From the NCBI GenBank assembly GCA_963804645.1, contig CAWDRG010000009.1:648314-712313 (forward strand): a DNA stretch of 64,000 nt, given 5' to 3'. Below the pieces are notes generated by a model. That model was given only the letters and a program-made list of their open reading frames with translations. It was not told the DNA's origin and did not search any database. This document shows, one piece after another, positions 8,901 through 59,433 of this stretch. Source of the stretch: an uncultured Bacillota bacterium (GTDB lineage Bacteria; Sysuimicrobiota; Sysuimicrobiia; Sysuimicrobiales; Segetimicrobiaceae). The translations under genes and the position numbers were made by a program. Each line of letters starts with the position of its first letter. Position 1 is the first letter of the stretch.

Positions 8901-9055
8901 CCACCCGGCCCGCGGCGGCGACAGGGACCCGTGCCGCCCCCGGAGAATCCGCGAGAGGTGCCTGACCCCTGCCGCTCGGTGAGCGGTTGACTTCCGATTC
9001 CCCGACTCCAGCCAAGCCCGTTCCACCGCCATCGCCCGCGGGCGGCGCGGCCCAC

Positions 9056-10222
9056 ATGCACACGCTGCTCACGGTCAACAACGCGCTGTCGGCGGCGTCA
9101 TCGGCCGCGATGGCGATCGTGACCCCGTTCGTGCCGCTCGACATCGCCGCCCAGGGCGGATCCGACATCGTGATCGGGATGGCGGTCGGCGCCGCCGGCC
9201 TGCTGCCGCTCCTGCTGTCGGTCCACGTGGGCGCGCTGGTGGACGAGCGCGGCGTCGTCTTCGTGTCGAAGGCGGCGGTCGTGATCTATGTCGTCGCCGG
9301 CGTGCTCCTGGTCGCCGGGCACAGCATCCCCGCGGTCACGGTGGCGTACGCGCTCATGGGGGTCGGCAGCATCGCGATGGTCGTCGCCACCCAGACCGTG
9401 ATCGCCGCCGTCAGCGATCCATCCTCGCGCATCCGAAACTTCGGCTACTATTCGGTGTGGAGCGCGGCCGGGTCGATCATTGGGCCGGTCGGCGGCGGCT
9501 TCGTCGCCCAGCAGTGGGGGTTTCAGGCGGCGTTCGCGCTGGTGCTGGTCTGCATGGTGCCGGCCTATCCGCTCGCGGCGCTGATGCGGTCGGCGCCCAA
9601 GGCGCCGCGGCACACGGTGTCGCTCGCGACGGCGCACACGCACACGGGCACCGTGTGGCGGCAGGCCGGGGTGCCCGCGATCCTGATCATCTGCTTCATC
9701 GTCGTGTGCGGCCAAACGCTGAAGCAGTCGTTCTTCTCGATCTATCTGCAGAAGGTCGGGCTCTCGGCGACCCTGATCGGGCTCGCCTACGCCGCGGACA
9801 GCCTGTGTCAGGTGGTGGTGCGCCCGGCGCTCGGCCCGAACGTGGTGCGGTTCGGCTACGGGACGCTGCTCGTGGCCGCCACCGCGATGTCGGCGGTCGC
9901 GCTCGGGGTGACGCCGCTCCTGCACACGTTCTGGCCGCTCGTGCTCGCGTCCGGGCTGATGGGAGTGAGCACGGGCGTGACCCAACCGGCGACGATGAGC
10001 ATGATGGCCGAGGCGGTCGGCGCGGAGTTCTGGGGGCTCGCGATGGGCATCCGCCAGGTCGCGCAGCGCTCGGCGTCCGTGCTGAGCCCGATCGTGTTCG
10101 GGGTGATCATCAATGTGTCGGGCATCGAGGCCGCGTTTTACGTCGGCGCCGCGGTGCTGGCGGGCAGCGTACCGATCGTCGGCAGCCTGACGCGGCAGTT
10201 TGGGGCTGAGCGGAGGGACTAG
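9056..10222 (+). CDS. MFS transporter
   Basis: About 12 predicted TM helices with G/A/V-rich hydrophobic segments. The track ORF begins at 8987; the internal Met at 9056 is preferred. The N-terminal extension is Pro-rich. Confidence 0.75.
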   Translation: MHTLLTVNNALSAASSAAMAIVTPFVPLDIAAQGGSDIVIGMAVGAAGLLPLLLSVHVGALVDERGVVFVSKAAVVIYVVAGVLLVAGHSIPAVTVAYALMGVGSIAMVVATQTVIAAVSDPSSRIRNFGYYSVWSAAGSIIGPVGGGFVAQQWGFQAAFALVLVCMVPAYPLAALMRSAPKAPRHTVSLATAHTHTGTVWRQAGVPAILIICFIVVCGQTLKQSFFSIYLQKVGLSATLIGLAYAADSLCQVVVRPALGPNVVRFGYGTLLVAATAMSAVALGVTPLLHTFWPLVLASGLMGVSTGVTQPATMSMMAEAVGAEFWGLAMGIRQVAQRSASVLSPIVFGVIINVSGIEAAFYVGAAVLAGSVPIVGSLTRQFGAERRD

Positions 10223-10273
10223 TTCTTGCCCGGCCGGTCGCGCGGCAGACAGGCCGGGGCGCCCACTGACTCG

Positions 10274-10318
10274 CGCGCCGCCAACACGCCCGGCGTCACA
10301 TAGGCGTGTTGGCGGCGG
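10274..10318. terminator. bidirectional stem-loop terminator between convergent genes
   Basis: Perfect 15-bp inverted repeat CGCCGCCAACACGCC ... GGCGTGTTGGCGGCG with a 13-nt loop. It lies between the MFS gene end (10222) and the minus-strand small ORF end (10328). Confidence 0.5.
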
Positions 10319-10327
10319 AGATTCCTG

Positions 10328-10486
10328 TCAGCGCGCGGCTTTGCGTACGGTCCGCGTGGCCTTTCGCGCCGTGCGACGCACCTTGCGTGTGGTCACCCGT
10401 GCGACCTTGCGTCCGGTGCGGCGTACAACGCGCTTGACTTTGCGGGCAGTGCGGCGAACCGTTCGGCTCGGTGAGGTATCGGTCAT
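10328..10486 (-). CDS. small arginine-rich heptad-repeat protein (52 aa), hypothetical
   Basis: Minus-strand ATG at 10486 preceded by AAGGAGA at 6-nt spacing. Translation: MTDTSPSRTVRRTARKVKRVVRRTGRKVARVTTRKVRRTARKATRTVRKAAR, 24 of 52 residues R/K, five xRxxRKV/A-like repeats. Below the track size cut-off. The overlapping MKH frame has a poorly spaced RBS and was not preferred. Confidence 0.4.
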   Translation of the reverse strand: MTDTSPSRTVRRTARKVKRVVRRTGRKVARVTTRKVRRTARKATRTVRKAAR

Positions 10487-10653
10487 GTTTCATCTCCTTT
10501 TTACGCGAAGTGTGGTTCGTAGTTCCCTTCTTCGGCCGCGCAAGAATTCCTGCGTGCGCGCACGGCGTTGTCCGCGCCGCCGCGCACACAGGGGCCGGCC
10601 GCGCTCCCGCAGAACGCTACAGCAAGGTCGCGGTTTCCCAGGGGTGGGCTTAG

Positions 10654-11835
10654 ATGGATGATCTGAACGCGCTGAAGCGCAGGGTGCGCGGCACCGTGGA
10701 CGAGATGCGGGACGTATTGGTCTCGCTCAGCCGGCGGATCCACGAGACGCCCGAGCTCGGGATGCAGGAGCGCCAGGCGGCGCAGTGGCTGACCGCGATG
10801 TTGCGCGACGCCGGGTTCGAGGTCACGCAGCCGATCGCGGGCATGGAGACGGCGTTCCGGGCCGACGTGCCCGGGTCGGCGTCGCGGCCGCACGTCGCGC
10901 TGCTCGCGGAGTACGACGCGCTGGCCGGGGTCGGGCACGCGTGCGGGCACAACCTGATCTGCATGGCGAGCGTCGGCGCCGCGGTCGCGCTCCACCGCGC
11001 GATTCCGCGGCTGCCCGGCACGCTGACCGTGCTTGGGACGCCCGCCGAGGAGACCGCGGGCGGCAAGGTGCCGATGGTCGAGCAGGGCGTGTTCGACGGC
11101 GTCGACGCCGCGATGATGTTCCATCCGTCGAAGTCCAACTGGTGGGTGCGCGGCGCGTTGGCCGCGCAGGGGCTCACGATCACGTTCCACGGGCGGTCGT
11201 CCCACGCCGCCGCGGCGCCGGAGAAGGGCATCAACGCGCTCAACGCGCTGCTCCTGACGTACCACGCGATCGACTCGCTGCGGCAGCACGTCACGAGCGA
11301 CGTGCGCATCCACGGGGTCATCACGCACGGCGGCGACGCGGCCAACGTGGTGCCGGCGCTCGCGGTCGGGGAGTTTCTCGTGCGCGCGAACACCCAGGCG
11401 GCGCTCGTCGGCGTCATGGCCCAGGTCCAGCGCTGCGCGGAGGGCGCGGCGGTCGCGACCGGCGCGCGCGTCGAGATGAAGACGGGCGCCGTCTACGCCG
11501 AGCGCAACAACAACCGCACGCTCGCCGGACTGTTCGGCGACAACATGCGCGAGGTCGGCGTCGAGGGTGAGGAGCCGGCCGCGTCCGGCGGCGTCGGGTC
11601 GTCCGACATCGGCAACGTCAGCCTCGTGGTACCGACGATTCACCCGTACGTGAAGATCACCGACGACGCGGCCGGGCACACGCCCGAGTTTCGCGAGGCG
11701 TCGGCGTCCGAGCGCGGCTACACCGCGATGCTGAACGCCGCGAAGGGCCTCGCCACGACGGCGCTCGACGTCATGTACCGCCCCGGGGCCGTGGACGAGC
11801 TGTGGGCGGAGTTCCACGCGAGCCAGCGGCGCTGA
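10654..11835 (+). CDS. M20D-family amidohydrolase/peptidase (AbgB / hippurate-hydrolase-like) paralog 1
   Basis: 393 aa. The HACGHN metal-binding motif, GTPAEE, and the dimerisation-domain region are conserved. About 70% identical to the paralog at 24179..25369. Confidence 0.85.
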   Translation: MDDLNALKRRVRGTVDEMRDVLVSLSRRIHETPELGMQERQAAQWLTAMLRDAGFEVTQPIAGMETAFRADVPGSASRPHVALLAEYDALAGVGHACGHNLICMASVGAAVALHRAIPRLPGTLTVLGTPAEETAGGKVPMVEQGVFDGVDAAMMFHPSKSNWWVRGALAAQGLTITFHGRSSHAAAAPEKGINALNALLLTYHAIDSLRQHVTSDVRIHGVITHGGDAANVVPALAVGEFLVRANTQAALVGVMAQVQRCAEGAAVATGARVEMKTGAVYAERNNNRTLAGLFGDNMREVGVEGEEPAASGGVGSSDIGNVSLVVPTIHPYVKITDDAAGHTPEFREASASERGYTAMLNAAKGLATTALDVMYRPGAVDELWAEFHASQRR

Positions 11836-43617: not shown

Positions 43618-44141
43618 CGGGTCTCTCCCACTCCTTCGAGTGACGGTGCTCGGCCGGCCGCCTGCTCCTGCAATACCTGCTCGCGTATTCCCCGGAGCCG
43701 AACCAGCCGTTCCTGCAGTTCCTTGTGAAGCTTCGCCAGCCGCGCCGTGCGCTCGTCAACGATGCGCATCTGAGACTGTGCCAGCGCCATGGCCTGATCG
43801 AGCAGCCCGAGGCGCGTCGCCGGATCCGTGGCCTGCTGGTACGCCTCGCGGATTTCCGCGCGCACCGCGTCCGCGTGGAGCGTTTCCTTGATCTCAGCGA
43901 GTGAAATGCCGAGGAGCGACTGCAACTCCTTGATCCTCAGCAGCAGGGCGATCTCCGCCTCGGTGAAGAGGCGAAACCCGCCGGCGGTTCTCCCTGAGGG
44001 GGACAGCAGACCCACTTCTTCGTAGTAGCGAATCGCGCGCGGAGTCAAGCTCGTCCGGCGGACAACTTCTTCCATGCGGTAGTTCGCTTGGGGTCCGGTG
44101 GGATCTTGCTCCTCTGAGATGGGTGCCTGACCGTCCGTCAT
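43614..44141 (-). CDS. MerR-family transcriptional regulator
   Basis: MEEVVRRTSLTPRAIRYYEEVGLLSP is a MerR HTH, followed by a coiled-coil dimerisation helix. Overlaps the hlyD start (ATGA). Likely regulates the emrAB-like operon. Alternative start at 44075. Confidence 0.8.
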   Translation of the reverse strand: MTDGQAPISEEQDPTGPQANYRMEEVVRRTSLTPRAIRYYEEVGLLSPSGRTAGGFRLFTEAEIALLLRIKELQSLLGISLAEIKETLHADAVRAEIREAYQQATDPATRLGLLDQAMALAQSQMRIVDERTARLAKLHKELQERLVRLRGIREQVLQEQAAGRAPSLEGVGETR

Positions 44142-44632
44142 CCGCTCATTCTCCTACCCAAAGCTTAATCAAATAGCGCTTTAGGGATTATAACATACTC
44201 TTCCGTTAACGTGACATTGCCCAAATTACTTCCGTTGTTGCCGCCCGTTTTCGGGGCGCCGGGACCGTCGCCATCCCTTCCGTCACGTAAACGAGAGATT
44301 CTACTCCTGCTCGCCGCCTGCCTTGACTTGCCTAGAATGGTTCGACCTGCCCCCCGAGGCGGTGCTGCCTCGGAAGGCGCCTGGTGACGCGGGTCGAGGC
44401 CGGCACTCACGGGGTGATTCGTCCGTTGAAACTGGCATCGCTTCTTGCTATGCGCCGGCCGGAGCAATCCTGTTCCGGATGCCTATATGTATTCGTATTC
44501 GCCTTCGACGTATAATCGAACACCGGTTCGCGTGGCGAAGGCGGCCGTTGCGCATGCGCGCCTGCGGGTATAAGATTCTCGTTGCCGCCCAAGGCGGCAG
44601 CGCGTGGGGGGCATAGCTGGGGGGATCGCGTC

Positions 44633-45496
44633 GTGCGACCGTCTTGGAGGGGCTACGTCAGCTTCGGGCTCGTGACGATTCCCGTTAAACTGTACACGGC
44701 GACCGAACAGAAAGACGTTCGGTTCCGACTGCTGCACACCGTCTGTCATACGCCCATCAAGAATCAGCGCTTCTGTCCTCACTGCGACCGCGTGATCGAA
44801 TGGGCCGACGTCGTCCGCGGGTACGAGGCGAGCAAGGGTCGCTTCGTGCTCGTGACCGACGAGGAGCTGGAGCAGATTCCGATCGACACCAGCGGCAACG
44901 TGAATATCGCCGGGTTCGTCGAACTCCAGGACATCGACCCGATCTACTACGAGCGGTCCTACTACGTCGCGCCGGACGAGGGCGGAGCCAAGGCGTTTCT
45001 CCTGCTCGAGGAGGCGCTGCGCGAGGCGAACCGGGTGGCGATCGGCAAAGTGGTGATTCGGGAGAAAGAGCAGCTCGTGTCGCTTCGCCCGTATCAAAAG
45101 GCGATGGTGCTGAGCACGCTGTTCTATGCCGACGAGGTGCGGTCGCTGTCCGGTCTGGAAGAACTGCCGGTGGAGGCCACGGTGCATCCCAACGAGCGGA
45201 AGATGGCCGTGCAGCTCGTGGAGAATCTCGCGATGGAGTTCAATGTCGAGGAGTTCAAAGACGAGTACCGTGATGCCCTCATGGCGATGATCAGTGCGAA
45301 GGGTAAGGGCGAGGAAGTCGCCGGGCCGAAAGAGGCGCCCGCCCCGGGCAAGGTCGTCGACCTGATGGAGGCGCTCAAGCGAAGTGTCGAGATGGCGAAG
45401 GGCAGCCATCGGCGGCCGGCGGCCGACGGCAAGAGCGCCCGCGCCGCGGGCCAGCAGCGGCGGGCGGCGGGCGGCATGCACGAGCGTCCGCGATAG
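44633..45496 (+). CDS. ku: Ku protein (non-homologous end-joining DNA-end binding)
   Basis: WRGYVSFGLVTIPVKLYTATEQKDVRFRLLH is the canonical Ku beta-barrel N-terminus. The C-terminal tail is basic. GTG start, trimmed from the track start at 44582. No ligD gene in the window. Confidence 0.85.
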   Translation: MRPSWRGYVSFGLVTIPVKLYTATEQKDVRFRLLHTVCHTPIKNQRFCPHCDRVIEWADVVRGYEASKGRFVLVTDEELEQIPIDTSGNVNIAGFVELQDIDPIYYERSYYVAPDEGGAKAFLLLEEALREANRVAIGKVVIREKEQLVSLRPYQKAMVLSTLFYADEVRSLSGLEELPVEATVHPNERKMAVQLVENLAMEFNVEEFKDEYRDALMAMISAKGKGEEVAGPKEAPAPGKVVDLMEALKRSVEMAKGSHRRPAADGKSARAAGQQRRAAGGMHERPR

Positions 45497-45528
45497 CGAT
45501 CGTCCCCAAGCGCACGCGCGTGACGCGC

Positions 45529-45558
45529 CGAACGGCGGCCCGGAAGGGCCGCCGTTCG
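45529..45558. terminator. bidirectional stem-loop terminator (13-bp perfect stem, GGAA tetraloop)
   Basis: CGAACGGCGGCCC-ggaa-GGGCCGCCGTTCG between the convergent ku (+) and substrate-binding-protein (-) genes. Confidence 0.6.
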
Positions 45559-45586
45559 GACTATCGTCGGAACTGCGCCGGCGCGC

Positions 45587-47197
45587 TTACTTCCAGGTCG
45601 CGTAGATCGCGGCCCACTTCTCGTTTGGCGTCACGCTCACGCCCTGCAGATGGTTGGTCGCGACCATGTAGAAGTCCTGACTCCAGAGGAAGATCCACGG
45701 CGCGTCCTTCCAGATCATCTGCTGCGCTTCCTTATACATCGCCTCGCGCTTCGTTTGATCCGGGACCGTCTGGGCCTGCAGCAACAGGTTGTCGACGTCG
45801 GTGTCCTTGTAGAACGACGGCGCCAGCCCGGTGGGCGGCCACTGCCCCGAGTAGAACTGGCCGAACAGCTCGCCGTCGGCGTCCAGGTACTGCGTCGCCC
45901 ACCCGAGGATGAAGATCTGAAGCGGGCTCTGCGCCAGCGGAGTCACCATCCACTTCACGTACGTCGGCCAGTCGGAGGTCTGGACGTTCGCCTGGATCCC
46001 GACGTTGCTGAGCTGCGCCGCGACCGCCTGGGCGAACTGATAGTCCTGGATGTACCGCCCCGTGGGGGTCCGGAAGTCGAGCTGGAAGCCCTGGGGGTAG
46101 CCGGCCTCCGAGAGCAGCTTCTTCGCCAGCGTCGGGTTGAACGGCCACCCGCCCGCCTGCAGCTTGGTGTATCCAAACAGCGCCGGGGTCGTCGGCGACT
46201 CGAGCACGTGCGCGAGGCCGAACAGCACGCTGTGGATGATCGCATCCTTGTTGATCGCGTAGTTGAGGGCCTGGCGTACCCGGACGTCCTTCAGCGGTCC
46301 GTATTGGTTGTTGAGCCCGATGAAGACGTCGCGGTCGCTCGCTCCGGAGATCACCGTGAGCGTGTTGTCCTTGCGGAGCGTGGGAACGTCCGGGGCGGGC
46401 GGTTCGTATGCCATCTGGACGTCGCCCGCGCGCAGCATGGTCTCGCGCGTGCCGGCGTTCGGCACGACGCGGAAGATCACCGTGTCGAAATACGGCTTCT
46501 TCCCCCAATAGTTCGGGTTCTTGACGAGCGTGATGTGGTCGCCGTGCACCCACTCCTTGAACACGTAGGGACCCGTCCCGGCATCCGTCGGGCCGAGCAC
46601 GATCTTGTCGTTGCCGATCTTCTTGACCGCGGTCGGCGAGAGGATCATCCCCGGCCCCGCGGCCATCCGCTCGAGCAGCGTCGGACTGGTCTGCTTGAGG
46701 TGCAGCACCACCGTATACGGATCCGGGGTGTCGATCCGGGTGGCGTCGATGTCGGTGAAGTAATACCGGTTCGGATTGCGCACGCTGGTGTCGAGCCACC
46801 GCTGGACGTTGAACTTCACCGCGTCCGCGTTGAAGTCGGTGCCGTCCTGGAACTTGACGCCCTGCCGCAGTTTAAACGTGTAGGTCAGCCCGTCGGGGCT
46901 CACCGTCCACGACGTCGCGAGCTGCGGCGTGAGCTTCGTATACTGGGGCTGGCCCGGTTCCACGCCCGAGCGCTCGTCGTTCGGCCAGATGAGCGAGTCG
47001 AACATGTATTCCACCATGTTGGACACGGTGGTGGTCGTCTGCCCTTCGGGGTCGAGCGTGTCGGCGTCGATGCCGACGGCGATCGTCAGGGTGGTCGGCG
47101 CGGCGGCGAATCCTCCCCGGGGGATCACGAGGAGCACCACCGCCACGACGCAGGCCACCAGCAGCGCGACGACGGGACGTACGGCCGATCGGATCAT
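45587..47197 (-). CDS. ABC transporter substrate-binding protein, family 5 (DppA/OppA-like)
   Basis: Signal peptide MIRSAVRPVVALLVACVVAVVLLV, then TLTIAVGIDADTLDP and ...FNVQRWLDTSV.... 536 aa. Confidence 0.85.
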   Translation of the reverse strand: MIRSAVRPVVALLVACVVAVVLLVIPRGGFAAAPTTLTIAVGIDADTLDPEGQTTTTVSNMVEYMFDSLIWPNDERSGVEPGQPQYTKLTPQLATSWTVSPDGLTYTFKLRQGVKFQDGTDFNADAVKFNVQRWLDTSVRNPNRYYFTDIDATRIDTPDPYTVVLHLKQTSPTLLERMAAGPGMILSPTAVKKIGNDKIVLGPTDAGTGPYVFKEWVHGDHITLVKNPNYWGKKPYFDTVIFRVVPNAGTRETMLRAGDVQMAYEPPAPDVPTLRKDNTLTVISGASDRDVFIGLNNQYGPLKDVRVRQALNYAINKDAIIHSVLFGLAHVLESPTTPALFGYTKLQAGGWPFNPTLAKKLLSEAGYPQGFQLDFRTPTGRYIQDYQFAQAVAAQLSNVGIQANVQTSDWPTYVKWMVTPLAQSPLQIFILGWATQYLDADGELFGQFYSGQWPPTGLAPSFYKDTDVDNLLLQAQTVPDQTKREAMYKEAQQMIWKDAPWIFLWSQDFYMVATNHLQGVSVTPNEKWAAIYATWK

Positions 47198-47367
47198 GGC
47201 TCACATCCCTCCTTCTTGCGTATGAGGCTATGCGGCCGGAGCCGCCGATCTGGGCGCGGAGGGTCCCGCGCGACAGGGCTATCTACAGTACGCGCTGCCG
47301 GGGAGGAATTCCTTTGGACGAGGCTTGCGGACTAGGCAGACGACTGCCACCGAAGTAGAATATGCCC

Positions 47368-47460
47368 CGGAGGGGTGCGAGAGCTCGGCTGAATCGGGCG
47401 GTCTCGAAAACCGCTAGGCGGGCAACTGCCTCGGGGGTTCAAATCCCTCCCCCTCCGCCA
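47368..47460 (+). tRNA. tRNA-Ser (anticodon CGA), class II with long variable arm
   Basis: GGAGGGG/CCCCTCC 7-bp acceptor stem, D stem CGA/TCG, anticodon stem GCGGT/ACCGC with loop CU-CGA-AA, long variable arm, T arm GGGGG-TTCAAAT-CCCTC, discriminator G plus encoded CCA. Confidence 0.85.
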
Positions 47461-47654
47461 ACGACCCATGAGTGCCATGGGTCGGCGCACAGGCTTATCG
47501 TCCGAGCTGAAGCGCGTCCCGCTGGAGAAATTGCCGCCGTGTACTACATTGTACTGCGTTGTACCATGTACTTTAGACGACGGAAGAACCAACCCGTTTT
47601 ATTATCAGGTCCGCCGTGTTCGTCCAGCGGAGTGCGTCGATGACTTGATCCTGA

Positions 47655-48065
47655 CTACCGCGGTTGTACGTCGATCGGGGGCCCACTCACGTGCATCTGA
47701 TCGCGGATTCGGCCCGCAAACTCTGCCGCTCCGTAGCAGCGGAACTTGAACTCCGTGCCGTCGCGTAGCGCCACGGTCACGACGCGCGTGCCGATTCCGA
47801 AGCGATCAGTAACCGACGTAATGTCCGCCAGGGGTACGCGACGGCTCATATTGTCTTTGTGAACGAATCGGTTCATTGCATTCGGTCGGAAATCGAGACA
47901 ATCTGGCAAGAGATACATGGTGCCACCGACCCATAAGCCCCTATAGTTTGCCTTGAAAAATTTAAGAGCGATCTTTACTTCCGCGTCCATTGGAAATCCC
48001 AACTCAGCGGATTTGATGAGAGCGTTTACTATCTTTTTGGCAACAATGTTTGCTGGCTCCTCCAT
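47655..48065 (-). CDS. GRAM/PH-like domain protein (hypothetical), in AT-rich island
   Basis: MEEPANIVAKK... behind a strong GGAGGTGA RBS. The C-terminal RVPLADITSVTDRFGIGTRVVTVALRDGTEFKFRCYGAAEFAGRI matches the GRAM/bacterial-PH beta-sandwich pattern. Codon usage and local GC are clearly lower than the flanks. Confidence 0.5.
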   Translation of the reverse strand: MEEPANIVAKKIVNALIKSAELGFPMDAEVKIALKFFKANYRGLWVGGTMYLLPDCLDFRPNAMNRFVHKDNMSRRVPLADITSVTDRFGIGTRVVTVALRDGTEFKFRCYGAAEFAGRIRDQMHVSGPPIDVQPR

Positions 48066-48184
48066 GAATTGTTCACCTCCGTCATCTATGTTAGGCACAC
48101 CATGATTTGCAAGCAATAGGCGCGGTGGAGGACCGGCTCGCGCCCTTGACCATGGAACGTATGCTTGCCGTGATGAGCTGCCTC

Positions 48185-48212
48185 GCGGAGTTCACATCCT
48201 TCCCCTTCGCCA
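48185..48212 (+). repeat. degenerate direct repeat of the tRNA-Ser 3' end (T-arm plus acceptor), putative att remnant
   Basis: GCGGAGTTCACATCCTTCCCCTTCGCCA versus the tRNA 3' end GGGGGTTCAAATCCCTCCCCCTCCGCCA. Followed by the same CCCATG..CATGGG hairpin motif seen after the intact tRNA. Confidence 0.45.
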
Positions 48213-48288
48213 AGAACCCATGAAAGACATGGGTGCGCACGCAGCGCCTCTTGTCCGACTCCGATCGCTTCTCGCGCGAACACTCCGA

Positions 48289-48440
48289 CCATGGTAACCG
48301 CTTGTACTACTCCGTTTCGCTATGGCAGGCCGCCGCGCGGACTCGGACGGATGCCCATTTCGTGACGCGGACGTGATCTGGACCGGCATGGGGCGCGCGC
48401 CCGATATCCTGGTGGCTGTGGGGAGCGTATTCTTTGAATT
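48289..48440 (+). repeat. ~150-bp conserved repeat R, copy 1 (function unknown; element end, promoter or ncRNA)
   Basis: CCATGGTAACCGCTTGT...TATGGCAGGCCGCCGCGCGGACTCGGACGGATGCCC...GACGCGGACGTGATCTGGACCGGCATGGGGCGCGCGCCCGATATCCTGGTGGCTGTGGGGAGC is about 90% identical to 49792..49940. Ends just before the RBS of the DUF900-like gene. Confidence 0.5.
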
Positions 48441-48448
48441 GAGGAGAG

Positions 48449-49531
48449 ATGTCAAAACCTGCAGGGGGATGTGCCGTGTCGACTTACGTCACCGTCCCGA
48501 TCGACGAGAATGGCATCATTTCCGATTTATACCTCCCGTCAATTATCTCCGAGTCAACGCACGACCCGTTCCGATTTTCCGATGTGTTCGTCTACTCGCA
48601 CGGTTGGTGGACCAATGCCGCGCAGGCCATGACGGACTATAACCACTTCGTCGTGGATCTCACAAGATGTCTCCTGCAGATAGCTCCGGCGCCGCCGTCC
48701 GATCTCGCCCTCCCCCGGTCGTCATTTCCGATTGCGCTCCATTGGCCGTCTATGATTAGCGAGGACCCAGGTTCTCTTGCGAACGCTGCGGAACTCGCGA
48801 CCTTTTTCTCAATGGGGAAGCGCGCCGACGTTGTCGGCCAACATGGGGTATCATCGCTCGTGAGAATGCTCTACAACGACTGGAACCCGCCGACGTCGGA
48901 CATGAAGTTGCGCCTCAACTTGATCGGGCACAGCTTTGGCTGCCGTGTGGTATGTTCCGGGTTGGCCACGGCGCTCACGACGATTGCTCAGGAGCAGCGC
49001 CGACTTCCCCAGTCAATCCAGTTGAGAGTGGTACTGCTTGCGCCGGCCTTCAACAGCGATGAGCTCCAACATGACCAGGATTACGCTGCGCTCACCGAAC
49101 CGGAATTGGACCTGCGCATCCTGGCAACCCGTTCCGACGGGGACACATCGCTCTGCACGTGGTATCCGCGGGCCGAAGCGCTGAATTTCTTCGCAAAGGA
49201 GCCCGTGACGGCGTTGGGCGGCGCAGGTCCGAGCGCACAGACTCTTTCTGACTTTGCCTCAAGCGGTACCGGTATTTCGGTGGGCCCCGGGTTTACGTAT
49301 AAAGGGGTCGTCACGAACACCGAGCGCCTCGTCGTCGCAGATCTCAGCGCATTGCATGCCGCGAACCCCGATCATGTGACGAGCAAGTTCGCCGGCCATC
49401 ACTCCGACATTTACTACAACGAGATTTACGAGCTGATCGCGGGATTTCTGTTCACGCGTTATCCGTTGGGGGTCGCGCCGCCTCCGGAATCACGCACCCC
49501 TGTTTTAGAATCGCCGGTGACCGCTCGGTAA
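48449..49531 (+). CDS. alpha/beta-hydrolase-fold serine hydrolase, DUF900-like (putative esterase/lipase)
   Basis: VFVYSHGWWTN, IALHWPSM and the nucleophile elbow LIGHSFGCRV (GxSxG) follow the DUF900 order. The start may be the GTG at 48476. Sits in island 2 between tRNA-Ser fragment repeats. Confidence 0.65.
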   Translation: MSKPAGGCAVSTYVTVPIDENGIISDLYLPSIISESTHDPFRFSDVFVYSHGWWTNAAQAMTDYNHFVVDLTRCLLQIAPAPPSDLALPRSSFPIALHWPSMISEDPGSLANAAELATFFSMGKRADVVGQHGVSSLVRMLYNDWNPPTSDMKLRLNLIGHSFGCRVVCSGLATALTTIAQEQRRLPQSIQLRVVLLAPAFNSDELQHDQDYAALTEPELDLRILATRSDGDTSLCTWYPRAEALNFFAKEPVTALGGAGPSAQTLSDFASSGTGISVGPGFTYKGVVTNTERLVVADLSALHAANPDHVTSKFAGHHSDIYYNEIYELIAGFLFTRYPLGVAPPPESRTPVLESPVTAR

Positions 49532-49660
49532 GCGGGCGCGCCGACAAGCCCCGAGATGCTCGGCGAACGGGACGGCTCGAAGGTGTAAATTCAATCGCCG
49601 GGCCAGAATGTCGAGGACGTTCCGCGAGGTCAATCAAACTGGCACAGCTATGGCGGGCGC

Positions 49661-49715
49661 AAAACTGCTAGGAGGGTAACTGCCTCCGGGGGTTCAAATT
49701 CCTCCCCTTCCGCCA
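49661..49715 (+). repeat. direct repeat of the tRNA-Ser 3' portion (anticodon loop to CCA, 55 bp), putative att site
   Basis: AAAACTGCTAGGAGGGTAACTGCCTCCGGGGGTTCAAATTCCTCCCCTTCCGCCA versus the tRNA AAAACCGCTAGGCGGGCAACTGCCTCGGGGGTTCAAATCCCTCCCCCTCCGCCA. There is no matching 5' half, so it is not a tRNA gene. Confidence 0.7.
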
Positions 49716-49791
49716 ATGCCCCATCAACGACATGGGTCGGCACACAAGCGTGCCCGTTTGATTCGAACCGCGTCTTACCCGAGAACTGCGG

Positions 49792-49940
49792 CCATGGTAA
49801 CCGCTTGTCCTGCTTCGCTTCGTTATGGCAGGCCGCCGCGCGGACTCGGACGGATGCCCCACTTCCTGACGCGGACGTGATCTGGAACGGCATGGGGCGC
49901 GCGCCTGATACCCTGGCGGCTGTGGGGAGCTATTATTTAA
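49792..49940 (+). repeat. ~150-bp conserved repeat R, copy 2
   Basis: See copy 1. Same position relative to the tRNA fragment: about 75 bp downstream of the CCA. Confidence 0.5.
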
Positions 49941-50221
49941 CTTTTGCACGAAATCGATCAGTAGGTGAAAGGTACAGCCGCGGGACGAGAGCCGGAAAAC
50001 GTCGAGGGGCGCATCGCAGTAGGCTTTGGGGAGGTGAACCTACAATGGGCGAGCCGGGTGGAAGCTCAGGGGCACCTGATTACGTGATCCGGCCGCCTGC
50101 TGCATTTCGGCCGGAATGTCCATCAAACTATTGGTGCGACGGAACCGTTAGATCTAACGCCTGCTGCGGGTAGTGGACTGCTCCTCTCGGTCGGTGCCCG
50201 CAGGGTGTGGGTCCGGGGAAT

Positions 50222-50659
50222 ATGTTCCTCTCGATCGGTGCCCTGCTTGTTTTGAGTGCGGGCATTGGGCTCGCCCTCTCGATTCTCATTGCGGTGATCT
50301 TCCGCAAGTATGCGACGCCTGAGCATGCCGTCGCTGACAGCTTCAGTGAGTTTCACACACGCCTGAGCCAGCTGCAAGGTCAGTTCTCGAGCGATTGCGC
50401 CAATCCGGTGGTGCCAAGCGGTGGCTCAGCCGACGCGGCCCGGAGAGAGGTAGGCGAACACCTGCATAGCATCAACAAAGAGCTTCGTCGGAACGGGCTG
50501 CCGTGGGTAAGGGGGACAGGCTATATTAGCCTCTGGGAACGCCTGCACCGTGCCGAAGAAGCCCTCATCGAATTTCAGCCTTCGGGGGCGGTCGTCGCGG
50601 GGGCGATCCTGACGCGCAGCGGCTTCGCGGTTCAAAAATTCCACGCTGCGAAGACGTGA
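50222..50659 (+). CDS. hypothetical membrane-anchored protein
   Basis: MFLSIGALLVLSAGIGLALSILIAVIF forms an N-terminal TM helix followed by a soluble domain. No family recognised. Lies in the degraded island. Confidence 0.3.
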   Translation: MFLSIGALLVLSAGIGLALSILIAVIFRKYATPEHAVADSFSEFHTRLSQLQGQFSSDCANPVVPSGGSADAARREVGEHLHSINKELRRNGLPWVRGTGYISLWERLHRAEEALIEFQPSGAVVAGAILTRSGFAVQKFHAAKT

Positions 50660-50779
50660 TCAAGCAACTGGGGCAGGCTGTCGAGGCCATTGATCCGTCC
50701 GCTCGGAAATACCTTTTTGATCCTCCCACAGCGGCTCTGCCACTAGTCATCAAGAGCCAGCGCAGGCTGGACGACGCAA

Positions 50780-51446
50780 TTGTCGGTGTCACGTGGTTTA
50801 GAAGCTCTCGCGGCGAGCGGGGGCACGCCCCCGTACCATTGGACGTCCGACGACGCGACGCTGCCGCAGTGGGCAATGCTGAGCGATACGGGCGTGGTGG
50901 GCGGCACGCCGCCACGGCAGACGGTGGGGCCATGCGGATTTACTGCTCGCGTGACGGATAGCGCCAGCGTGACGGCCACCAAAGATTTTGCTCTAACTGT
51001 CCGCGAGCTGGAGAATGCGACGCTGCTCGATGCGACGTTGGAAGGGCGTACAAGGGAGTCGGGAATCAGCAAGCGGCGTCCGCATACACGAGTGGTCTGA
51101 TCAAAACTCCTTGCAAGGCGGAGTGGGACTTGCGCGAGAGGGCGTGCTGACCGGCGCGCCGGCGACTGCCGGGATGCTTCGCGTTTCGGCGCGGGTCGAA
51201 AGCGAAGGGCAAGAGATCACCGAAGATGTCACATTAGTTGTGAAGACTCCAGCGGATCGGATTGGTGACAGTGACGCAGATCGAGGCACATTGGCGCGGG
51301 GTGTGTTGCGCACTGTTCGCCTCGTCATCGATGAGTTCGCGACCAAAACTGGAACGCGATCGTGCTCGCCCGCAATCGCCTCGCGGAACTCATGTTTCTC
51401 ACGGGACTGCTTGGGTACGCGTTACTCGCGATTGCCATCGGGGTGA
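50780..51446 (+). pseudogene. fragments of a cell-surface protein with putative-Ig (He_PIG / dystroglycan-type cadherin-like) repeats, in two different frames
   Basis: Frame 1 (50780..51100): GGTPPYHWTSDDATLPQWAMLSDTGVVGGTPPRQTVGPCGFTARVTDSASVTATKDFALTV. Frame 2 (51015..51446): LPxG-like ...GVLTGAPATAGMLRVSARVESEGQEITEDVTLVV. Two consecutive repeats of the same domain type in different frames indicate frameshifting. Confidence 0.4.
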
Positions 51447-52478
51447 AGGCGCAACGGAACTCGAAATTGGCTGCTGCAGCGGTTTTCTATCTGGCTGGTG
51501 CGACAACGGGGCTGCTCAGCCGACTGTACAGTGAGTCCCAAGGATAACGCGGTCGTCGGGAGCATTGATCGGACTATGGTCTTGTGCCGATGCGGGTCTG
51601 ACATGCTGGTAGTGTCCGGTTTGGCGGCAATTTTCGGTGTGGTGTTGGTGGCGATGCTGCCGCAAGCTGTGAGTGCGTTCACGAGCGCGGTTGGGGCGGT
51701 GGTAACGCGACCCAGCATGCCGTCGTTGGCAGATATTCTCGATCTCGAAGGGCACCTCGCTTACATCATTGTGGCGGCGGTTTTTGGCCTGACTCCAGGC
51801 TGTTCTTTAACCGGCTCAGGGCCTGGCCGACACTTTTCAAGAAGGATTTGAAATCCACCAGCGCCCATCAGAACGAGGCGTCGATGCGGCAGGGGCGTCG
51901 GTGTGGGGCGCCAGGGTTCAACGGCGGCCCTTCACCATCGCGGAATAGATTACGCGTTGATCCTTTCCGAGTGTAGGATGTGATTATATCGTTCAGTATG
52001 CCCCCCCACATAATATGGGATTTTGAATGCTCTGCCAAAAAAAGGATAGTTTTGAATTTTTCCGTCGAAGAAATGTTCGATCACCAAGCGGTAAGCGCTC
52101 GGTGCCTACCGCCATGTGCCGACGGTCCACACTGACACCCGCCGGACTGCGGCGGATGACGGTACTCGCTGCGCGGCTGTGCTTCCGGATCGAGGGAACG
52201 GGGGGCAGTCAAATGCGGCGTGGCTGGATGCTGACGGTGCTGATCCTCGGTTGCGTGTAAGGTGTCGACGGCACCATCGCTGGCTGAAATCACCGGCATG
52301 CTCCGCCTGATTAAAGCGTCCACGTTGGCGGATACTTTGGAAGAACAGGGATTTGATGGTCTGAAGATGAAGCCGCAGCGCGGCGGCGCTGCCATCTCGC
52401 GGCGAGGACAGGTGCAGCGTCGCAAGCGGGCGGCAGACAGTTGACGACGTAGTCAATGCAACCCTCCGCGAGGGGGGC

Positions 52479-53268
52479 GTGGAAATGGGGACGCGGCTGC
52501 AAGGGAAGGTGGCCCTTATCACCCGGGCATCTCAGGGAATGGGACGCACCGCGGCGATCTGTTCGCGAAGAAGGGGCGCGTGTCGCGATCGTCGACGTGG
52601 ACGAGGCGCAGGGCGTCGAGGTCGCCGGCATCATCACCTCCGCCGGCGGGGAGGCGCTGTTGGTCCGCGCGGACGTCAGCGACGCCGGGCAGGCCCGCGC
52701 GGCCGCCGATGCGACCGTCGCCCGGTTCGGCCGCCTCGACGTGCTCTTCAACAACGCGGCCGTCCGCGCGAACGGCGCGCTCCACGAAATGTCCGAGGAA
52801 GACTGGGATCGCGTCGTCGCCGTCAACCTCCGAGGCGTGTTCCTAATGTCCAAGTTCGCCATCCCGTATATGATGAAGCAGGGAGGCGGCTCGATCATCA
52901 ACATGTCGTCGGCTGTAGCGTTCGTCGCCATGGAGCGGCGGGCGGCGTATATTGCGACGAAAGGCGCCGTGCTGGCGCTCACGCGCGCGATGGCGACGGA
53001 CTACGCGGACCACCACATCCCCGTGAACGCGTTGTGCCCCGGGACCGTGGCGACACCGCGTCTGGTCGCGTCCCTCCGGCCGCCGGGCGCCGGGGCGCAG
53101 GCAACATACTGCCGGTCATCTACACGTCAGGGGACGCTGGCCCGGCCGGATGAACTTGAGGCCGCGGCGCTGTTTCTGGCTTCCGACGACTCCAGCTTCA
53201 TGACGGGCGCCCCGCTGAACGTCGACGGCGGGTTCATCGCTGGCCGGCGGGCGTGGCCGGCCCAATGA
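52479..53268 (+). pseudogene. SDR-family oxidoreductase disrupted by two 1-nt deletions
   Basis: N-terminus MEMGTRLQGKVALITRASQGMGRTAAI is in frame 52479. The rest (EEGARVAIVDVD...NNAA...YIATKGAV...LASDDSSFMTGAPLNVDGG) is in frame 52456. The intervening 15 nt read LFAK in the third frame, implying two single-base deletions within GCGGCGATCTGTTCGCGAAGAAGGGG. Confidence 0.6.
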
Positions 53269-53638
53269 CCCGCAGACCACCGCGCCGCACCCACGGCGCG
53301 GTCGGGAAAGAGGCGTGAGAGCTGTGGCAACGGTGATCGAGGCTCCGGCGCAGGCACCTACCGCATCGCTGGCCCGGTTCATCGCCGGCCTCGGGGACAG
53401 CCGCTGCACGCATATCGATGAGGCCGCGTGCTGGGCGCCGTCCCCGAAAGCTCGCGGCCAGGAAGCCTGGGCGAGCTCGTCCCTGCGGAAGGCGCGGACG
53501 ACGGATTCGAGCGGTGTGACGCCGCTCTTGAAGAGTCCGCCTCCTCCTAGAGGCCCTTCGCTCCTCCGGCATCAGGTTATGCCGTCACGTGCGGCTTACC
53601 GTCCACTACCTCCCACTACCCGTCTGTTACAAGACGCT

Positions 53639-54275
53639 CTAGCCGTTCCAGCGTGAGGTCGCACAAGAATTAACAACCAGCGTCGCGGAGGAGAAATCAT
53701 TGGTCCGTGTGTGCGCGGTTGGAACGGCGACCACTGGCATTCCAGCATCTCGGGCAGCTAGCACGCCTTTTTCCGCGTCCTCCAGCACCACACATCTGGC
53801 AGGCTCCGCCCCGAGATGTTGAACGGTATGAAGAAACACATCGGGATAGGGTTTGGCGCGCGGGACACTTTCTCTGGTCGCAATCACGTCAAACACACTT
53901 GCAGCACCGATCTTGCGAAGCACGGGGTCGACATCCACCCGAAACGCAGACGTGGCCAGCGCGAGGCGCACGTGTGACCGCAGGGCGTCAATCAGTTCGA
54001 GCGCACACGGCATCGGTTGCAGTTCGGCCTCCAGCAGCGTCGAATAGTAAATCAGCTTGCGTCCTCTCAGCACCTCTGGGTCGCGTCGGACGCCACGGGC
54101 GCGTAGGTAACTCGATGCCACCGGCGCTCGGATCGACAACGCATATCATCAACCGAGCGGCATGCCAATTTCTGCGAGCGTGTCTAGCCAAGACCGGTAA
54201 CGCAGGCCTTCCGTGTCAACGAGAAGTCCGTCAAGGTCGAAAATAACGGCCTGCAGCGCTGCCGCGGATGGCATG
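53639..54275 (-). pseudogene. HAD-superfamily hydrolase (subfamily IA) interrupted by two consecutive in-frame TGA codons
   Basis: Minus strand: MPSAAALQAVIFDLDGLLVDTEGLRYRSWLDTLAEIGMPLG-TGA-TGA-YALSIRAPVASSYL...KPYPDVFLHTVQHLGAEPARCVVLEDAEKGVLAARDAGMPVVAV. The HAD motif I DxD (FDLDG) and motifs III/IV are in the same frame, separated only by TGATGA. Confidence 0.55.
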
Positions 54276-54279
54276 ATCG

Positions 54280-55021
54280 TTAGCGGTACCCGCCGTAGAT
54301 CGCGTGTCCGGCATACATCCAGAAACAGTCAACGATCTGGAATCCGACTTCGCGTAGCCAGTCCAACTGGTCGACGAGGCGAGACGGCTGATCCACCGGA
54401 TCCGGCACATCCAGCCGGTAGTGGTTCCAGCGATCATCTCCAAACCCATCGCGCGCGCGCGCATCGCCGAACCTGCGCAGGCTCCGCTCTTGGACCGCCT
54501 CGTCCCACTGCGAAGCAAAGAGACGCGCCACATGAGGCGTCGCCGCCTCGACGAGATCAGCGACGAGGAGCGCGCCCCCGGGCTCCAAGCGCGCGGCCAA
54601 ATCCGCGAACAGACGCCGTTTCTCAGGCCCAGGGATATGGTGAATCGCAAGCGAGGAGATCACACACCGCAACGATACCGGAAGAGTGGCCCGCCAATCG
54701 TCGGTACTGTGAGCAACATCTGCGTGCTGCACACGTCGCCGAAGATCCGAGCAACCGCCGCTCTCGCTCCAGCATCACGTCGGAACCGTCGAACGCGAGC
54801 ACCTGGCACCGGGGAAATCGCTCGAGCATCTCCTTAGCAAACGTCCCATCGCCCGCAGCGAGCTCGACGATCGTGAACGTTTCGTCAGCGTCAGCCGGGA
54901 TCAGGTCGAGAAGAACGCGCCGCTGCTCTTCGCGTGCAGGAACGTACCCGTCGCCGATCTCGGCGAATCGCTCAGAGTCGGCTTCAGTCCAGCGCGACGG
55001 ATCGCCGGGATTGCGTAACAT
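54280..55021 (-). pseudogene. class I SAM-dependent methyltransferase split by a frameshift
   Basis: N-terminal part (MLRNPGDPSRWTE...ETFTIVELAAGDGTFAKEMLERFPRCQVLAFDGSDVMLERERRLLG) is in frame 54623..55345. The C-terminal part (...VISSLAIHHIPGPEKRRLFADLAARLEPGGALLVADLV...) is in frame 54280..54732. They overlap about 110 nt. Confidence 0.55.
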
Positions 55022-55365
55022 GATCTCGGCAAAATTCGCGATTGTCAGTGATTGCTCCCGCTCTACCAACGGTAGAGGGTGCCACACAAGTGTTTGCTGA
55101 AATGATACATGCCGTTCGCTGAACGTTCGCTGGCGTGCCCAGAGAACGGGACGCCATGAAAGGAGGTGGGTTTTCGGAACGAGGCGATCTCGTGCAAGCT
55201 CGTGTTCGCCTACCGGTGGAAGTCCGGTCCGGGTAAGCGCCAGGGCGCCCGGTAGCAGGCTCCTGGTGCGAGGTGGAAACGCCTGGCACTGAAGCGGAGC
55301 GTCGAAGGCCTGAAGTCGAGGAAGCGACCGCTCAGCCCGTAACATGACGTGAATCCTGCCGCCTC

Positions 55366-56174
55366 GTGAAGTTAACCCCGCAAGGGGACCAGAGGGAGCC
55401 GAGTCGGGTAGTTCGCGACGAAGGCCATGGAAAGCGTGAAGCGCTTGGAGATGCAGCGCTGAAGGACCCTCCGGGGTATGGGGAGCGGGATGAGCGGAAG
55501 GTGGACACGGGAACTGGGGACACCCGCCCCCCGGGTGACGGACCGTTTCCGGCCGTTGTACTTCTCCCCGGCTGTGACGGGAGCTTCGACACGATCAACG
55601 AACACTACTTGGCGCTCTTTCAGCAACAAGGGTACGTCGTACTCGCGCTTGATGTGCACGGGTCGAGACACGTCTGCCCAAACTTGTCGGCGCTTCCTTC
55701 CTTTACCGTAGCGAAAGACGCGATCGGCGCGCACGTCTATCTGCGTTCGCTCCCCTATGTTGACGCGAACCGTATCGCGGTCGTGGGATGGAGCCTGGGA
55801 GGCGAAGCCGCCTCGTCCGCGGGCAACAAGGGATCGATCGTCGGCGCGCTCACTGAGTGGTGCCGGCTGCCTTCGCGTTCTATCCGGATTGCGAGTATCT
55901 TCTGCATTACGCGAAAGATGCTCGCGTCCCCACGCTCATCCTGATTGGGCAGGCGGACGACTGGGATTCGCCTAGCGAGTGCCAGGACGCCGCGCAGGCC
56001 TCGCAGCAGAACGGGCAGCCGGTCACGATCCAGACGTTCCCCGGAGCGCCTCACGCGTTCGACGTGGCTCCGAAACCGATTGTGTATCTGGGGCACAAGG
56101 AGGCGTACGATGCGGCGGCAGCAGCAGTGGCCCAGAGCGCGCTGCTGAGTTTTCTCGGGGACAATTTCAAATAG
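55366..56174 (+). pseudogene. dienelactone-hydrolase-family alpha/beta hydrolase split by a frameshift
   Basis: PAVVLLPGCDG...GYVVLALD...IAVVGWSLGGEAAS (nucleophile elbow) is in frame 55366..55944. The remainder (AAFAFYPDCEY...VPTLILIGQADDWDSP...FPGAPHAFD) is in frame 55857..56174. Confidence 0.55.
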
Positions 56175-56212
56175 CACGGCTATTTCACCACCCAGGTCCT
56201 AGCGGCGGCGGT

Positions 56213-56258
56213 GGGGCCGGCAACTGCCCCGGGGGTTCAAATCCATCACCCTCCGCCA
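56213..56258 (+). repeat. direct repeat of the tRNA-Ser 3' portion (variable arm to CCA, 46 bp), distal att remnant
   Basis: GGCCGGCAACTGCCCCGGGGGTTCAAATCCATCACCCTCCGCCA versus the tRNA GGCGGGCAACTGCCTCGGGGGTTCAAATCCCTCCCCCTCCGCCA. Confidence 0.7.
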
Positions 56259-57054
56259 ATGATCCAGGAACCACGTGGGCTGCGCACGCCGTGTCCGACT
56301 CGAACCGCACCCCAGAATATTAGCCGCCGTGTGATCTCGGGTGAGAATGCAGTGGCTGGCTTCTTTGGGGGGTGTTCGTCGTGCACCGATTCGAACTACA
56401 GGTTCTGCGGCGCCCAACGCGCAATGACGTCGCGGACCTGGACGATCAGATTGCGGCGTTCAACTGCGACGCAACCAACGCCCCGGGACGACCTGGAACT
56501 CGGCATCTTCGTCCGCGGCGGCGATGGCAGCCTCAATGTCGACGGCGAACCTACTTCGTGAAAATCGCGTTCCCATCAACGACCGTCACGAGCCGCCACC
56601 CCTGGGCGCTGAGTGCATTGAGATTGGATGCTGCGGCTGCGCACCTGGATGCGGCGAAATTTAATTGAGCGTTCACGTTGCTCGCCCGGCCCTGGGTGCG
56701 GAGGCTGCTTGGACACCCGTGATTTGACCCAGGGTGAACACGGTGTATTGAATGGACGTCGCGGCGTACGAGGCCGAGTGAGGCGTTCCGATGAGGAACC
56801 CAGCCCGAAGACGGCAAGAACAAATCCTAACAGTGTGCTCCGCACCAAATCACCCCCGGCCTCTGGACGGCACTCGCTTCGGACGGCTCTGGGCGCCCCT
56901 CGCTCGTGCCGTTTCGTCGGGACGATGTTGTTGAGGCCTTACATTGTGGGCGCAACTCTTAATCGTAATAATTGAGTCCACGCGCAGGGACCGGCTGCAG
57001 ACACCGCAAATAAGCGGTTGAAACGAACACACAATGTGCAAAGAGGTGTGGATC

Positions 57055-57393
57055 ATGCGATTTCTTGTGACCGCGGAATACGTCGAAGTGGGCGCGTTGC
57101 TGCCGCCGGAGGCGATCGGCCCGCTGGCGCAGCACGTTATTCTCCCGAGTCTCGAAATGTTGGCGAAGTGGGAGCAGGACGGCAAGATCCGTGGCGGCGT
57201 GCATGCCGGAGAGCGATCCGGCGCCTTCATTGTCGACGCCGCGTCCAACGAGGAAGTTGGAACGCTCCTCGCGAGCCTGCCATTTTGGGGGCTGGTGAAG
57301 TGGGACGTGACCCCGCTGCAGTCCTGGGCGTCCACCGTCGAGCGAGACCGAGGCGCCTTTCAAAGGGCCGCGTCCGGCGTCCCCAAGCGCTGA
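57055..57393 (+). CDS. muconolactone Delta-isomerase-family (MIase-like) small protein
   Basis: MRFLVTAEYVEVGALLPPEAIGPLAQHVILPSLEMLAKWEQDGKIRGGVHAGERSGAFIVDAASNEEVGTLLASLPFWGLVKWDVTPL aligns with the about 96-aa MIase pattern (MLF.V.M.V..P....., W...G......FDV.S..EL...L..LPL.P). AAGAGGTG RBS. Confidence 0.6.
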   Translation: MRFLVTAEYVEVGALLPPEAIGPLAQHVILPSLEMLAKWEQDGKIRGGVHAGERSGAFIVDAASNEEVGTLLASLPFWGLVKWDVTPLQSWASTVERDRGAFQRAASGVPKR

Positions 57394-57640
57394 CTCGGCT
57401 GTGTGAGATGAGCTCCGACCCCGTGCCGGGGCGCCCGTTGGCCCCCGGCGCGGGGGGCAGCGTGGCCAATAGGCCGGCAGGTCCCCTCGACGAACCCGTT
57501 CGGTTCCGCGGACTTTGAGAATCATGAGATCTTCATAGACTCTTGGCGAGTTCTTCTCCCGGCTGCGGGACCCTCAGAAGTGTCAGAACCTTGCGGCCCG
57601 CGACGGCACGGGCACGCAGGGTAGATCCGAGCCTCTGGGG

Positions 57641-57937
57641 TTGATGGTCGTGCTGCGGGCACTGGCAAACGGTCGGGTGGCTCGGTTCGTGGTCTTGAGT
57701 GCGGCGTTTGTCGCGTTGAGCGGACTTCCGGCGTATGCCCAATCGGGCGGACACTACCGGCACAACCAGAGCAGCGAGTCGTGCCAGGCCGGCCGCTGGC
57801 AGCAGGCCAACACGTGTCGGGGTCAGCCTCAGCAGTATCGGGGGCCCGAGTATCAGGCGCCCGCGCAGCCTCAGCCGGATCGGGGCGGGCCCGCGCAGTC
57901 TCCCGCGCGTATTCCAGACGATGGAAGCAGCAAGTAG
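57641..57937 (+). CDS. small secreted Gln/Pro-rich protein (hypothetical)
   Basis: N-terminal signal peptide ending ...LSGLPAYA/QSGG. Mature part is about 65 aa with two Cys and repeated QPQ/PQP. No homolog recognised. Confidence 0.35.
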   Translation: MMVVLRALANGRVARFVVLSAAFVALSGLPAYAQSGGHYRHNQSSESCQAGRWQQANTCRGQPQQYRGPEYQAPAQPQPDRGGPAQSPARIPDDGSSK

Positions 57938-59423: not shown

Positions 59424-59433
59424 CCCTGTAGGA

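Follow-up and report, generated by a model that had tools for sequence, protein, structure and literature searches.

The stretch of DNA analyzed here (64,000 nucleotides, or 64 kb, from an uncultured Bacillota bacterium; referred to below as the window) carries a 52-codon, arginine-rich open reading frame (ORF) on the minus strand of an intergenic spacer, which raises the question of whether this ORF is a gene and, if so, how it reached its present place and what its product might do. A preliminary description of the locus had placed the ORF between an MFS transporter gene and an M20 hydrolase gene, and both neighbors were confirmed, the second as an M20 peptidase gene. Translation of the minus strand at 10328-10486 likewise reproduced exactly the 52 amino acids given in that description. 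The features of the locus that are considered below are the following.

8987..10222, plus strand: MFS transporter gene (Pfam PF07690), convergent with the mini-gene
10223..10546: lineage-specific insertion holding the entire mini-gene (324 nt; GC 66%), directly past the MFS stop codon
10223..10236, plus strand: left inverted repeat TTCTTGCCCGGCCG, which pairs with 10533-10546 at 13/14 positions
10229..10258: second hairpin, with 11-nt arms that are 91% complementary; located between the MFS stop codon and the first hairpin
10276..10317, minus strand: first hairpin (perfect 15-bp stem, 12-nt loop), a putative terminator without a U-tract, beginning 11 nt past the stop codon of the mini-gene
10328..10486, minus strand: ORF of 52 codons plus stop codon, MTDTSPSRTVRRTARKVKRVVRRTGRKVARVTTRKVRRTARKATRTVRKAAR (GC3 0.70; coding signature; helix predicted by AlphaFold2)
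10493..10499, minus strand: Shine-Dalgarno sequence AAGGAGA, 6 nt before the ATG of the mini-gene
10533..10546, minus strand: right inverted repeat TTCTTGCGCGGCCG (minus-strand reading)
10549..10592: hairpin right next to the insertion, within the ancestral MFS-M20 spacer; its sequence includes the decamer GTGCGCGCAC
10654..11835, plus strand: M20 peptidase gene (PF01546, PF07687), divergent from the mini-gene

Architecture and coding signature of the 52-codon ORF

The Shine-Dalgarno (SD) site, ATG, 52 codons, stop codon and two hairpins form a self-contained mini-gene, all of which lies within the insertion. The start signal was found just as it had been described (i.e., AAGGAGA at 10499-10493, followed by 6 nt and the ATG) and, as an in-frame TGA is located 2 codons upstream, the ATG at 10486 represents the first possible start. 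Motifs of the AGGAGG/AAGGAG type were also found upstream of several long ORFs with high GC3 in the 64-kb window, which indicates that this organism uses Shine-Dalgarno sites. Based on base composition, we estimated that an SD site with an ATG and an ORF of at least 52 codons would be expected by chance approx. 0.3 times per window; an ORF of 52 codons is in itself trivial at 69% GC, and dozens of spurious Arg-rich ORFs are listed in the window. A scan for promoters revealed no promoter-like site for the mini-gene, and none was convincing by eye. The expectation that an ORF of this kind would go unannotated held only in part, as the ORF had been annotated by IMG gene callers on four peat-soil metagenome contigs from JGI, all of which encode the exact peptide (with 100% identical DNA), while the ORF is present and uncalled on two further contigs.

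According to the preliminary description, the ORF was built from tandem DNA repeats of ~21 nt, which encoded five imperfect heptad units with 46% Arg and Lys. The measured frequency of Arg and Lys is 22/52, or 42% (49% over residues 8-52), and tandem repeats were not recovered at the DNA level, with Tandem Repeats Finder (TRF) reporting 0 rows at a minimum score of 30. Direct DNA repeats within the ORF are weak (68-86% identity; spacings of 45, 33, 66 and 24 nt). Five heptad units can be recognized in the peptide (VRRTARK, VRRTGRK, ARVTTRK, VRRTARK and ATRTVRK); the spacings of their R-K motifs are 11, 8, 7 and 7 residues, rather than those of a pure heptad repeat. The polybasic coding frame that had been proposed was retained, with its repetition confined to the peptide level.

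These internal paralogous units were used for a coding test. The pairwise differences among the five heptad units numbered 12, 21 and 47 at codon positions 1, 2 and 3, respectively, and the first and fourth units (both VRRTARK) differ at 6 of 21 nucleotides, all 6 differences being synonymous. A self-comparison of the ORF at shifts of 21, 33, 45, 66 and 78 nt, which involves no hand-picked units, gave identities of 0.43 to 0.84 at codon positions 1 and 2, as compared to 0.21 to 0.42 (i.e., about random) at position 3. Moreover, the entropy of the first two codon bases was 2.31 bits, as compared to 3.21 +/- 0.09 bits in dinucleotide-preserving shuffles (0/5000), and the Lys codons are AAR in all six cases. 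The DNA of the units has thus drifted apart with the amino acid repetition preserved, as expected of a sequence that evolved as coding. All copies found have identical ORFs and no diverged homologue was found, and the comparison therefore covers the internal units. Overall, the divergence of the units, biased towards the third position, together with the SD site and ATG, the stop codon followed by a hairpin, and the exclusive use of AAR for Lys make it most likely that the ORF truly encodes a polybasic helical peptide. Comparisons of internal repeats by codon position may in this way separate orphan small ORFs from spurious Arg-rich ORFs in high-GC genomes.

A plus-strand frame with coincident wobble positions (in the ORF at 10200-10661) necessarily shows an equal period-3 signal. 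This frame was rejected as coding on its context, as it has no SD site or start within the insert, crosses both hairpins and ends in ancestral DNA; furthermore, all AAN codons of the minus frame are AAR (6/6), and no homologues of the plus-strand frame were found.

With both genes read in their coding direction, codons 18-25 of the mini-gene (KRVVRRTG, 10414-10435) match codons 8-15 of the M20 gene (KRRVRGTV, 10675-10696) at 17/22 bases, and 10675-10696 is the sole local sequence that resembles a repeat unit of the mini-gene. This likeness is probably due to chance among GC-rich Arg codons; an origin of the mini-gene from the 5' end of the M20 gene was rejected, as a 22-nt match at 77% is unexceptional among many GC-rich matches.

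A 324-nt insertion past the MFS stop codon

In two related lineages, L050 (MFS protein 95% identical) and L051 (83% identical), the MFS gene is followed by the M20 gene with the segment absent. After in silico deletion of 10223-10546, the distance from CAGTTT to CACAGGGG is 60 nt, as compared to 59 nt in L050 and 47 nt in L051. As these two diverged relatives share the short form, which is mutually alignable, the long form is derived and represents an insertion directly past the MFS stop codon. Replacement of the MFS C-terminus by the insert was ruled out, as the distance from CAGTTT to the MFS stop codon is exactly 21 nt in all three lineages and excision restores the spacing. The termini of the excised 324 nt form a 14-nt inverted repeat (TTCTTGCCCGGCCG / CGGCCGCGCAAGAA), which lies exactly at the edges of the indel as seen by comparison with L050 and L051; 10223-10236 and 10533-10546 are the sole 0-mismatch matches in the window. 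No target-site duplication was recognizable in the flanks (left, ...GGGACTAG; right, TTCCTGCG...), and neither the 64-kb window nor the ~55 fetched loci yielded a second copy of the unit.

ORF-bearing MITEs and small mobile intergenic repeats of bacteria have been described previously (Delihas, PMC2759123; PMC3184786). The unit resembles these elements in its size of a few hundred bp, its terminal inverted repeats, its stem-loops and its ORF, in having no room for a transposase (its sole coherent ORF, of 52 aa, has no transposase domain), and in its intergenic insertion right at the end of a gene. It differs from them in the single copy seen in the data examined, in showing no recognizable target-site duplication, and in carrying an ORF with full gene architecture and a strong coding signature. 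We infer from these features that the unit is MITE-like and was mobile. An origin as an IS630-derived MITE was rejected, as the ends of the unit are unrelated to the IS630 copy of L001-L004.

Other mobile DNA was also observed at this site. The CTAG at 10219-10222, at the MFS stop codon (TAG), represents an empty IS630 target in the window and is occupied in sibling peat-metagenome strains, in which an IS630-family element of ~1.1 kb (HTH + DDE_3) lies in the TA of CTAG with the TA duplicated; this insertion point is 2 nt from the 324-nt unit. L001 has a 178-aa IS630 HTH ORF followed by an ISL3 transposase gene (1038-2276) rather than by the DDE_3 ORF, which suggests that ISL3 is nested in the IS630 copy. 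In L052, an extra TAATT (read TA+ATT+TA) changes the MFS stop codon from TAG to TAA and resembles the footprint of an excision. In L005 (2657-5182; M20 81% identical), the closest GTDB genome and a relative even more distant than L050 and L051, an SDR gene is directly followed by the M20 gene; as the MFS gene is absent there, it represents a variable part of this catabolic cluster.

Conservation of the frame, which the preliminary description had proposed as a check, was assessed among all carriers of the segment. The ORF is 100% identical in L001-L004, L052, L054 and L055, including L052 with 98.8% identity over 661 nt, while the diverged L050 and L051 are without the segment. These comparisons suggest that the mini-gene is restricted to one lineage of a peat-soil bacterium, and that it is a young or imported orphan rather than a conserved component of the cell. 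Its GC3 of 0.70, as compared to 0.91-0.97 in six neighboring genes, is not that of host-typical codon usage and is similar to the GC3 of the lower-GC island genes in the window (0.69-0.84). The codon usage of the mini-gene thus appears foreign to the host, which points to evolution elsewhere in a context of lower GC3.

We consider the chances about even that the ORF encodes a genuine small protein and was brought in on a 324-bp unit with inverted repeats at its ends. The frame would then have evolved in its former context as a true protein-coding one, and would be so even now or would have been until very recently. The 324-bp unit with its 14-bp inverted repeats would then have entered one high-GC peat-soil lineage, and would have landed directly past the MFS stop codon in the short MFS-M20 spacer. 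If the peptide is made, the locus would represent an example of the gain of a bacterial small protein by way of a complete promoter-to-terminator mini-gene in an intergenic spacer, on a carrier unit too small for its own transposase.

A less probable, though serious, alternative is that the ORF is untranslated and lies on a non-coding mobile insertion, either a MITE or a fragment introduced by illegitimate recombination; the period-3 signal would then be a relic of a donor gene, and the hairpins and the string resembling an SD site would belong to the element or be due to chance. The strain-specific presence of the segment, the inverted repeats at its edges, a codon usage unadapted to the host, a promoter scan without detections, the searches without a homologue (see below), the skipping of the ORF by two gene-call sets and the commonness of ORFs of this length at 69% GC would all agree with a relic. 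On the other hand, a relic should gather stop codons or frameshifts, the coding-type divergence between the repeats is very strong, and the insert contains a full gene architecture (i.e., an ideally spaced SD site, an ATG, repeats that end at the stop codon and a hairpin 11 nt further on). If the peptide is not made, the locus would be a caution that a good SD site, ATG and hairpin may ride on a mobile fragment.

The importation of a genuine gene could also be taken further, in that the unit might belong to a class of minimal mobile cassettes not described before, with the gene of a polycationic single-helix peptide as sole cargo, which would be moved in trans by a transposase of the host or of an IS; nucleic acids would be the target of the peptide, which might, for example, bind the nucleoid or RNA selfishly, serve as a toxin or help to maintain the element. 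This extended version appears unlikely.

Predicted peptide and possible mode of action

If the mini-gene is a genuine imported gene, its product is a peptide composed of R16, T10, V8, A6, K6 and S2, with M, D, P and G once each and no L, I, F, W or Y. There is one acidic residue only, and the net charge is ~ +21. Arg and Lys recur with a period of ~3.7 residues (3.6-3.8), with a power peak at 95-100 degrees (0/20000 shuffles), and AlphaFold2 predicted one helix from the single sequence (residues 6-51, mean pLDDT 89.6). In this predicted helix of ~12 turns, Arg and Lys form a stripe along one face, with Val, Thr and Ala on the other. The R/K periodicity and the predicted helix thus characterize the peptide as a putative amphipathic helix, with unit lengths of 11, 8, 7 and 7 residues.

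Database searches revealed no relatives of the peptide. No family was matched in Pfam (even at E = 10), NCBIfam, PHROGs or PADLOC; in the PDB, the best E-value was 1.4 (phosphate-loop protein 6c2u), and the other four weak matches were designed helical proteins. No homologue was found among 5.8 billion clusters searched by word index (E <= 1 and E <= 10), in an exhaustive phmmer search of 1.84 billion representatives, by tblastn against plasmids and phages, by blastn against plasmids, or in viral contigs. According to a local sensitivity control for the exhaustive search, a self-hit would have an E-value of 8e-18 and variants with 30% of residues substituted would still pass 1e-3; the reach of this search is ~65-70% identity. 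As the exact protein is itself missing from the collection and small ORFs are under-sampled, the absence of homologues is weak evidence. Judged from these searches, the peptide appears to be an orphan that belongs to no known family.

The peptide alone should not form a stable free helix; it should be disordered, and should fold upon a polyanion. Its hydrophobicity is too low for membrane insertion. Judging from its composition alone, the peptide probably binds nucleic acid; RNA or DNA would be the first candidates for its polyanion target, with polyphosphate or an acidic coiled-coil partner as conceivable alternatives. Translation in the present host, which we infer, would yield an amphipathic alpha-helix of ~45 residues with this charge, and the helix may fold on RNA or DNA and neutralize it electrostatically, by analogy with arginine-rich motifs or protamines. 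The preliminary description had put forward nucleoid or RNA binding, association with the ribosome and antimicrobial-like activity as functions; roles in the ribosome core or at the membrane are less likely, given that the mini-gene is strain-specific in its presence and that L, I, F, W and Y are all missing from its product.

Arginine-rich-motif (ARM) RNA-binding peptides include those of lambda N and HIV Rev/Tat, and protamine-like proteins condense DNA. The predicted peptide would be like these in its high Arg content, its helical propensity, its expected folding on a polyanion and its purely electrostatic surface. On the other hand, it has no sequence relationship with them, and its length is much greater and its periodicity strict, with a single basic stripe that continues over ~12 turns; unlike ARMs, which are motifs inside larger proteins, the peptide is a free-standing protein of 52 aa. 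In the model, a charge of +21 on ~12 turns with an unbroken Arg/Lys stripe and no large hydrophobic residues would make an unusually clean natural design for binding polyanions.

Tiny R/K-rich ribosomal proteins (bL34, bL36, bS22, bL37 and eL41) are 25-50 aa long with R/K contents >40%, and eL41 is a single helix. The peptide falls in the same class of size and R/K content (>40%), and is predicted to be a single helix like eL41. These ribosomal proteins, however, are conserved universally or clade-wide, are encoded at core loci and show the codon bias of their hosts, whereas the mini-gene is absent where the MFS protein is 83-95% identical, has a GC3 of 0.70 as compared to 0.93, and gave no NCBIfam or Pfam match. 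Small (~50 aa) arginine-rich bacterial proteins that are widespread and conserved are also known from the DUF1127 family (PMC11707872, PMC12501420). The peptide is similar to these in length and Arg content; unlike them, it is an orphan with no Pfam match at E = 10.

It is decidedly improbable that the unit represents a selfish or toxic peptide module, similar to type I toxin-antitoxin systems or to antimicrobial peptides, the polycationic product of which would harm the cell or its competitors when over-expressed. Type I toxins are typically hydrophobic membrane peptides, and their loci are compact small-ORF cassettes of 0.3-0.6 kb with a patchy distribution by strain. The mini-gene is likewise a compact (~0.3 kb), self-contained, stand-alone cassette with a small ORF that is variably present among strains; its site also takes IS630 and ISL3 insertions, and its product would be a cationic amphipathic helix. 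The absence of L, I, F, W and Y, however, leaves this helix without a hydrophobic face or any large hydrophobic residue, unlike the hydrophobic transmembrane helix of known type I toxins and unlike helical antimicrobial peptides, and neither a signal peptide nor a leader is present. Nothing was matched in PADLOC or PHROGs; an antisense RNA was not identified, and no Rfam family reached its gathering score in the mini-gene region.

Hairpins and genomic setting

The hairpin at 10276-10317 is the longest perfect hairpin of the 64-kb window, in which three stems have at least 11 bp, and the 3' region of the mini-gene has a folding energy of -69.7 kcal/mol (z = -3.7). This hairpin had been described as a perfect 15-bp terminator. 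The hairpin itself is present as stated; its terminator status was not borne out, as it is followed by CGCGAGUCAG with no U-run and the terminator scan found 0 sites. Hairpins without a U-tract can terminate transcription in some high-GC bacteria and, by analogy, the hairpin at 10276-10317 may act as a terminator. Its loop differs by one SNP in L052. Membership of the hairpin in a REP-like repeat family was rejected, as the number of matches with <=3 mismatches equals the chance expectation, and so was membership in a known RNA family (BTH_s1 was sub-threshold on the hairpin, at 15.7 bits vs. a gathering score of 74).

The decamer GTGCGCGCAC (10554-10563), to which the preliminary description had drawn attention as a self-complementary sequence upstream of the M20 gene, is in itself unexceptional, with 193 perfect palindromes of 10 nt counted across the window as compared to ~134 in shuffles; it is part of the stem of the hairpin at 10549-10592. 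This hairpin may be the ancestral MFS terminator, which is now located upstream of the mini-gene. In L050, a possible 7-bp stem (CGCGCCG/CGGCGCG) matches the position of this hairpin, as seen by eye in the alignment, without folding.

It is very improbable indeed that the segment is a non-coding repeat or regulatory region, in which RCYTTGCG (plus strand) at intervals of 21-33 nt (i.e., 2-3 helical turns) would form an iteron-like array of protein-binding sites or would serve the neighboring promoters, with the ORF incidental: weak direct repeats at spacings of 21-45 nt and the intergenic location near the M20 promoter would be compatible with such sites, but TRF found no repeats, the identity of the repeats is low with mismatches at every third base rather than in spacers (which is a coding pattern), and relatives have MFS and M20 without the segment, which is therefore dispensable for M20 regulation.

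Elsewhere in the window, a perfect 14-bp hairpin with a GGAA loop (45528-45559) is located 28 nt downstream of an SBP_bac_5 gene (45587-47197, minus strand) and represents a second example of a long GC-rich hairpin at a gene end. The region from ~44000 to 62000 has a GC content of 57-67%, as compared to ~72% elsewhere, and adjoins a tRNA-Ser(CGA) gene (47369-47460); the GC3 of its genes is 0.57-0.84. Its content includes a match to group II intron D1-D4 RNA (55210-55347), a Ku gene (44582-45496) and assorted hydrolase and reductase genes, and the region looks like a genomic island. The host has an outer membrane and, in spite of its 69% GC, is therefore no actinobacterium, as indicated by a TonB-dependent receptor gene (60420-62330; Plug and beta-barrel domains), directly upstream of which lies a cobalamin riboswitch (60161-60373; 94.7 bits).
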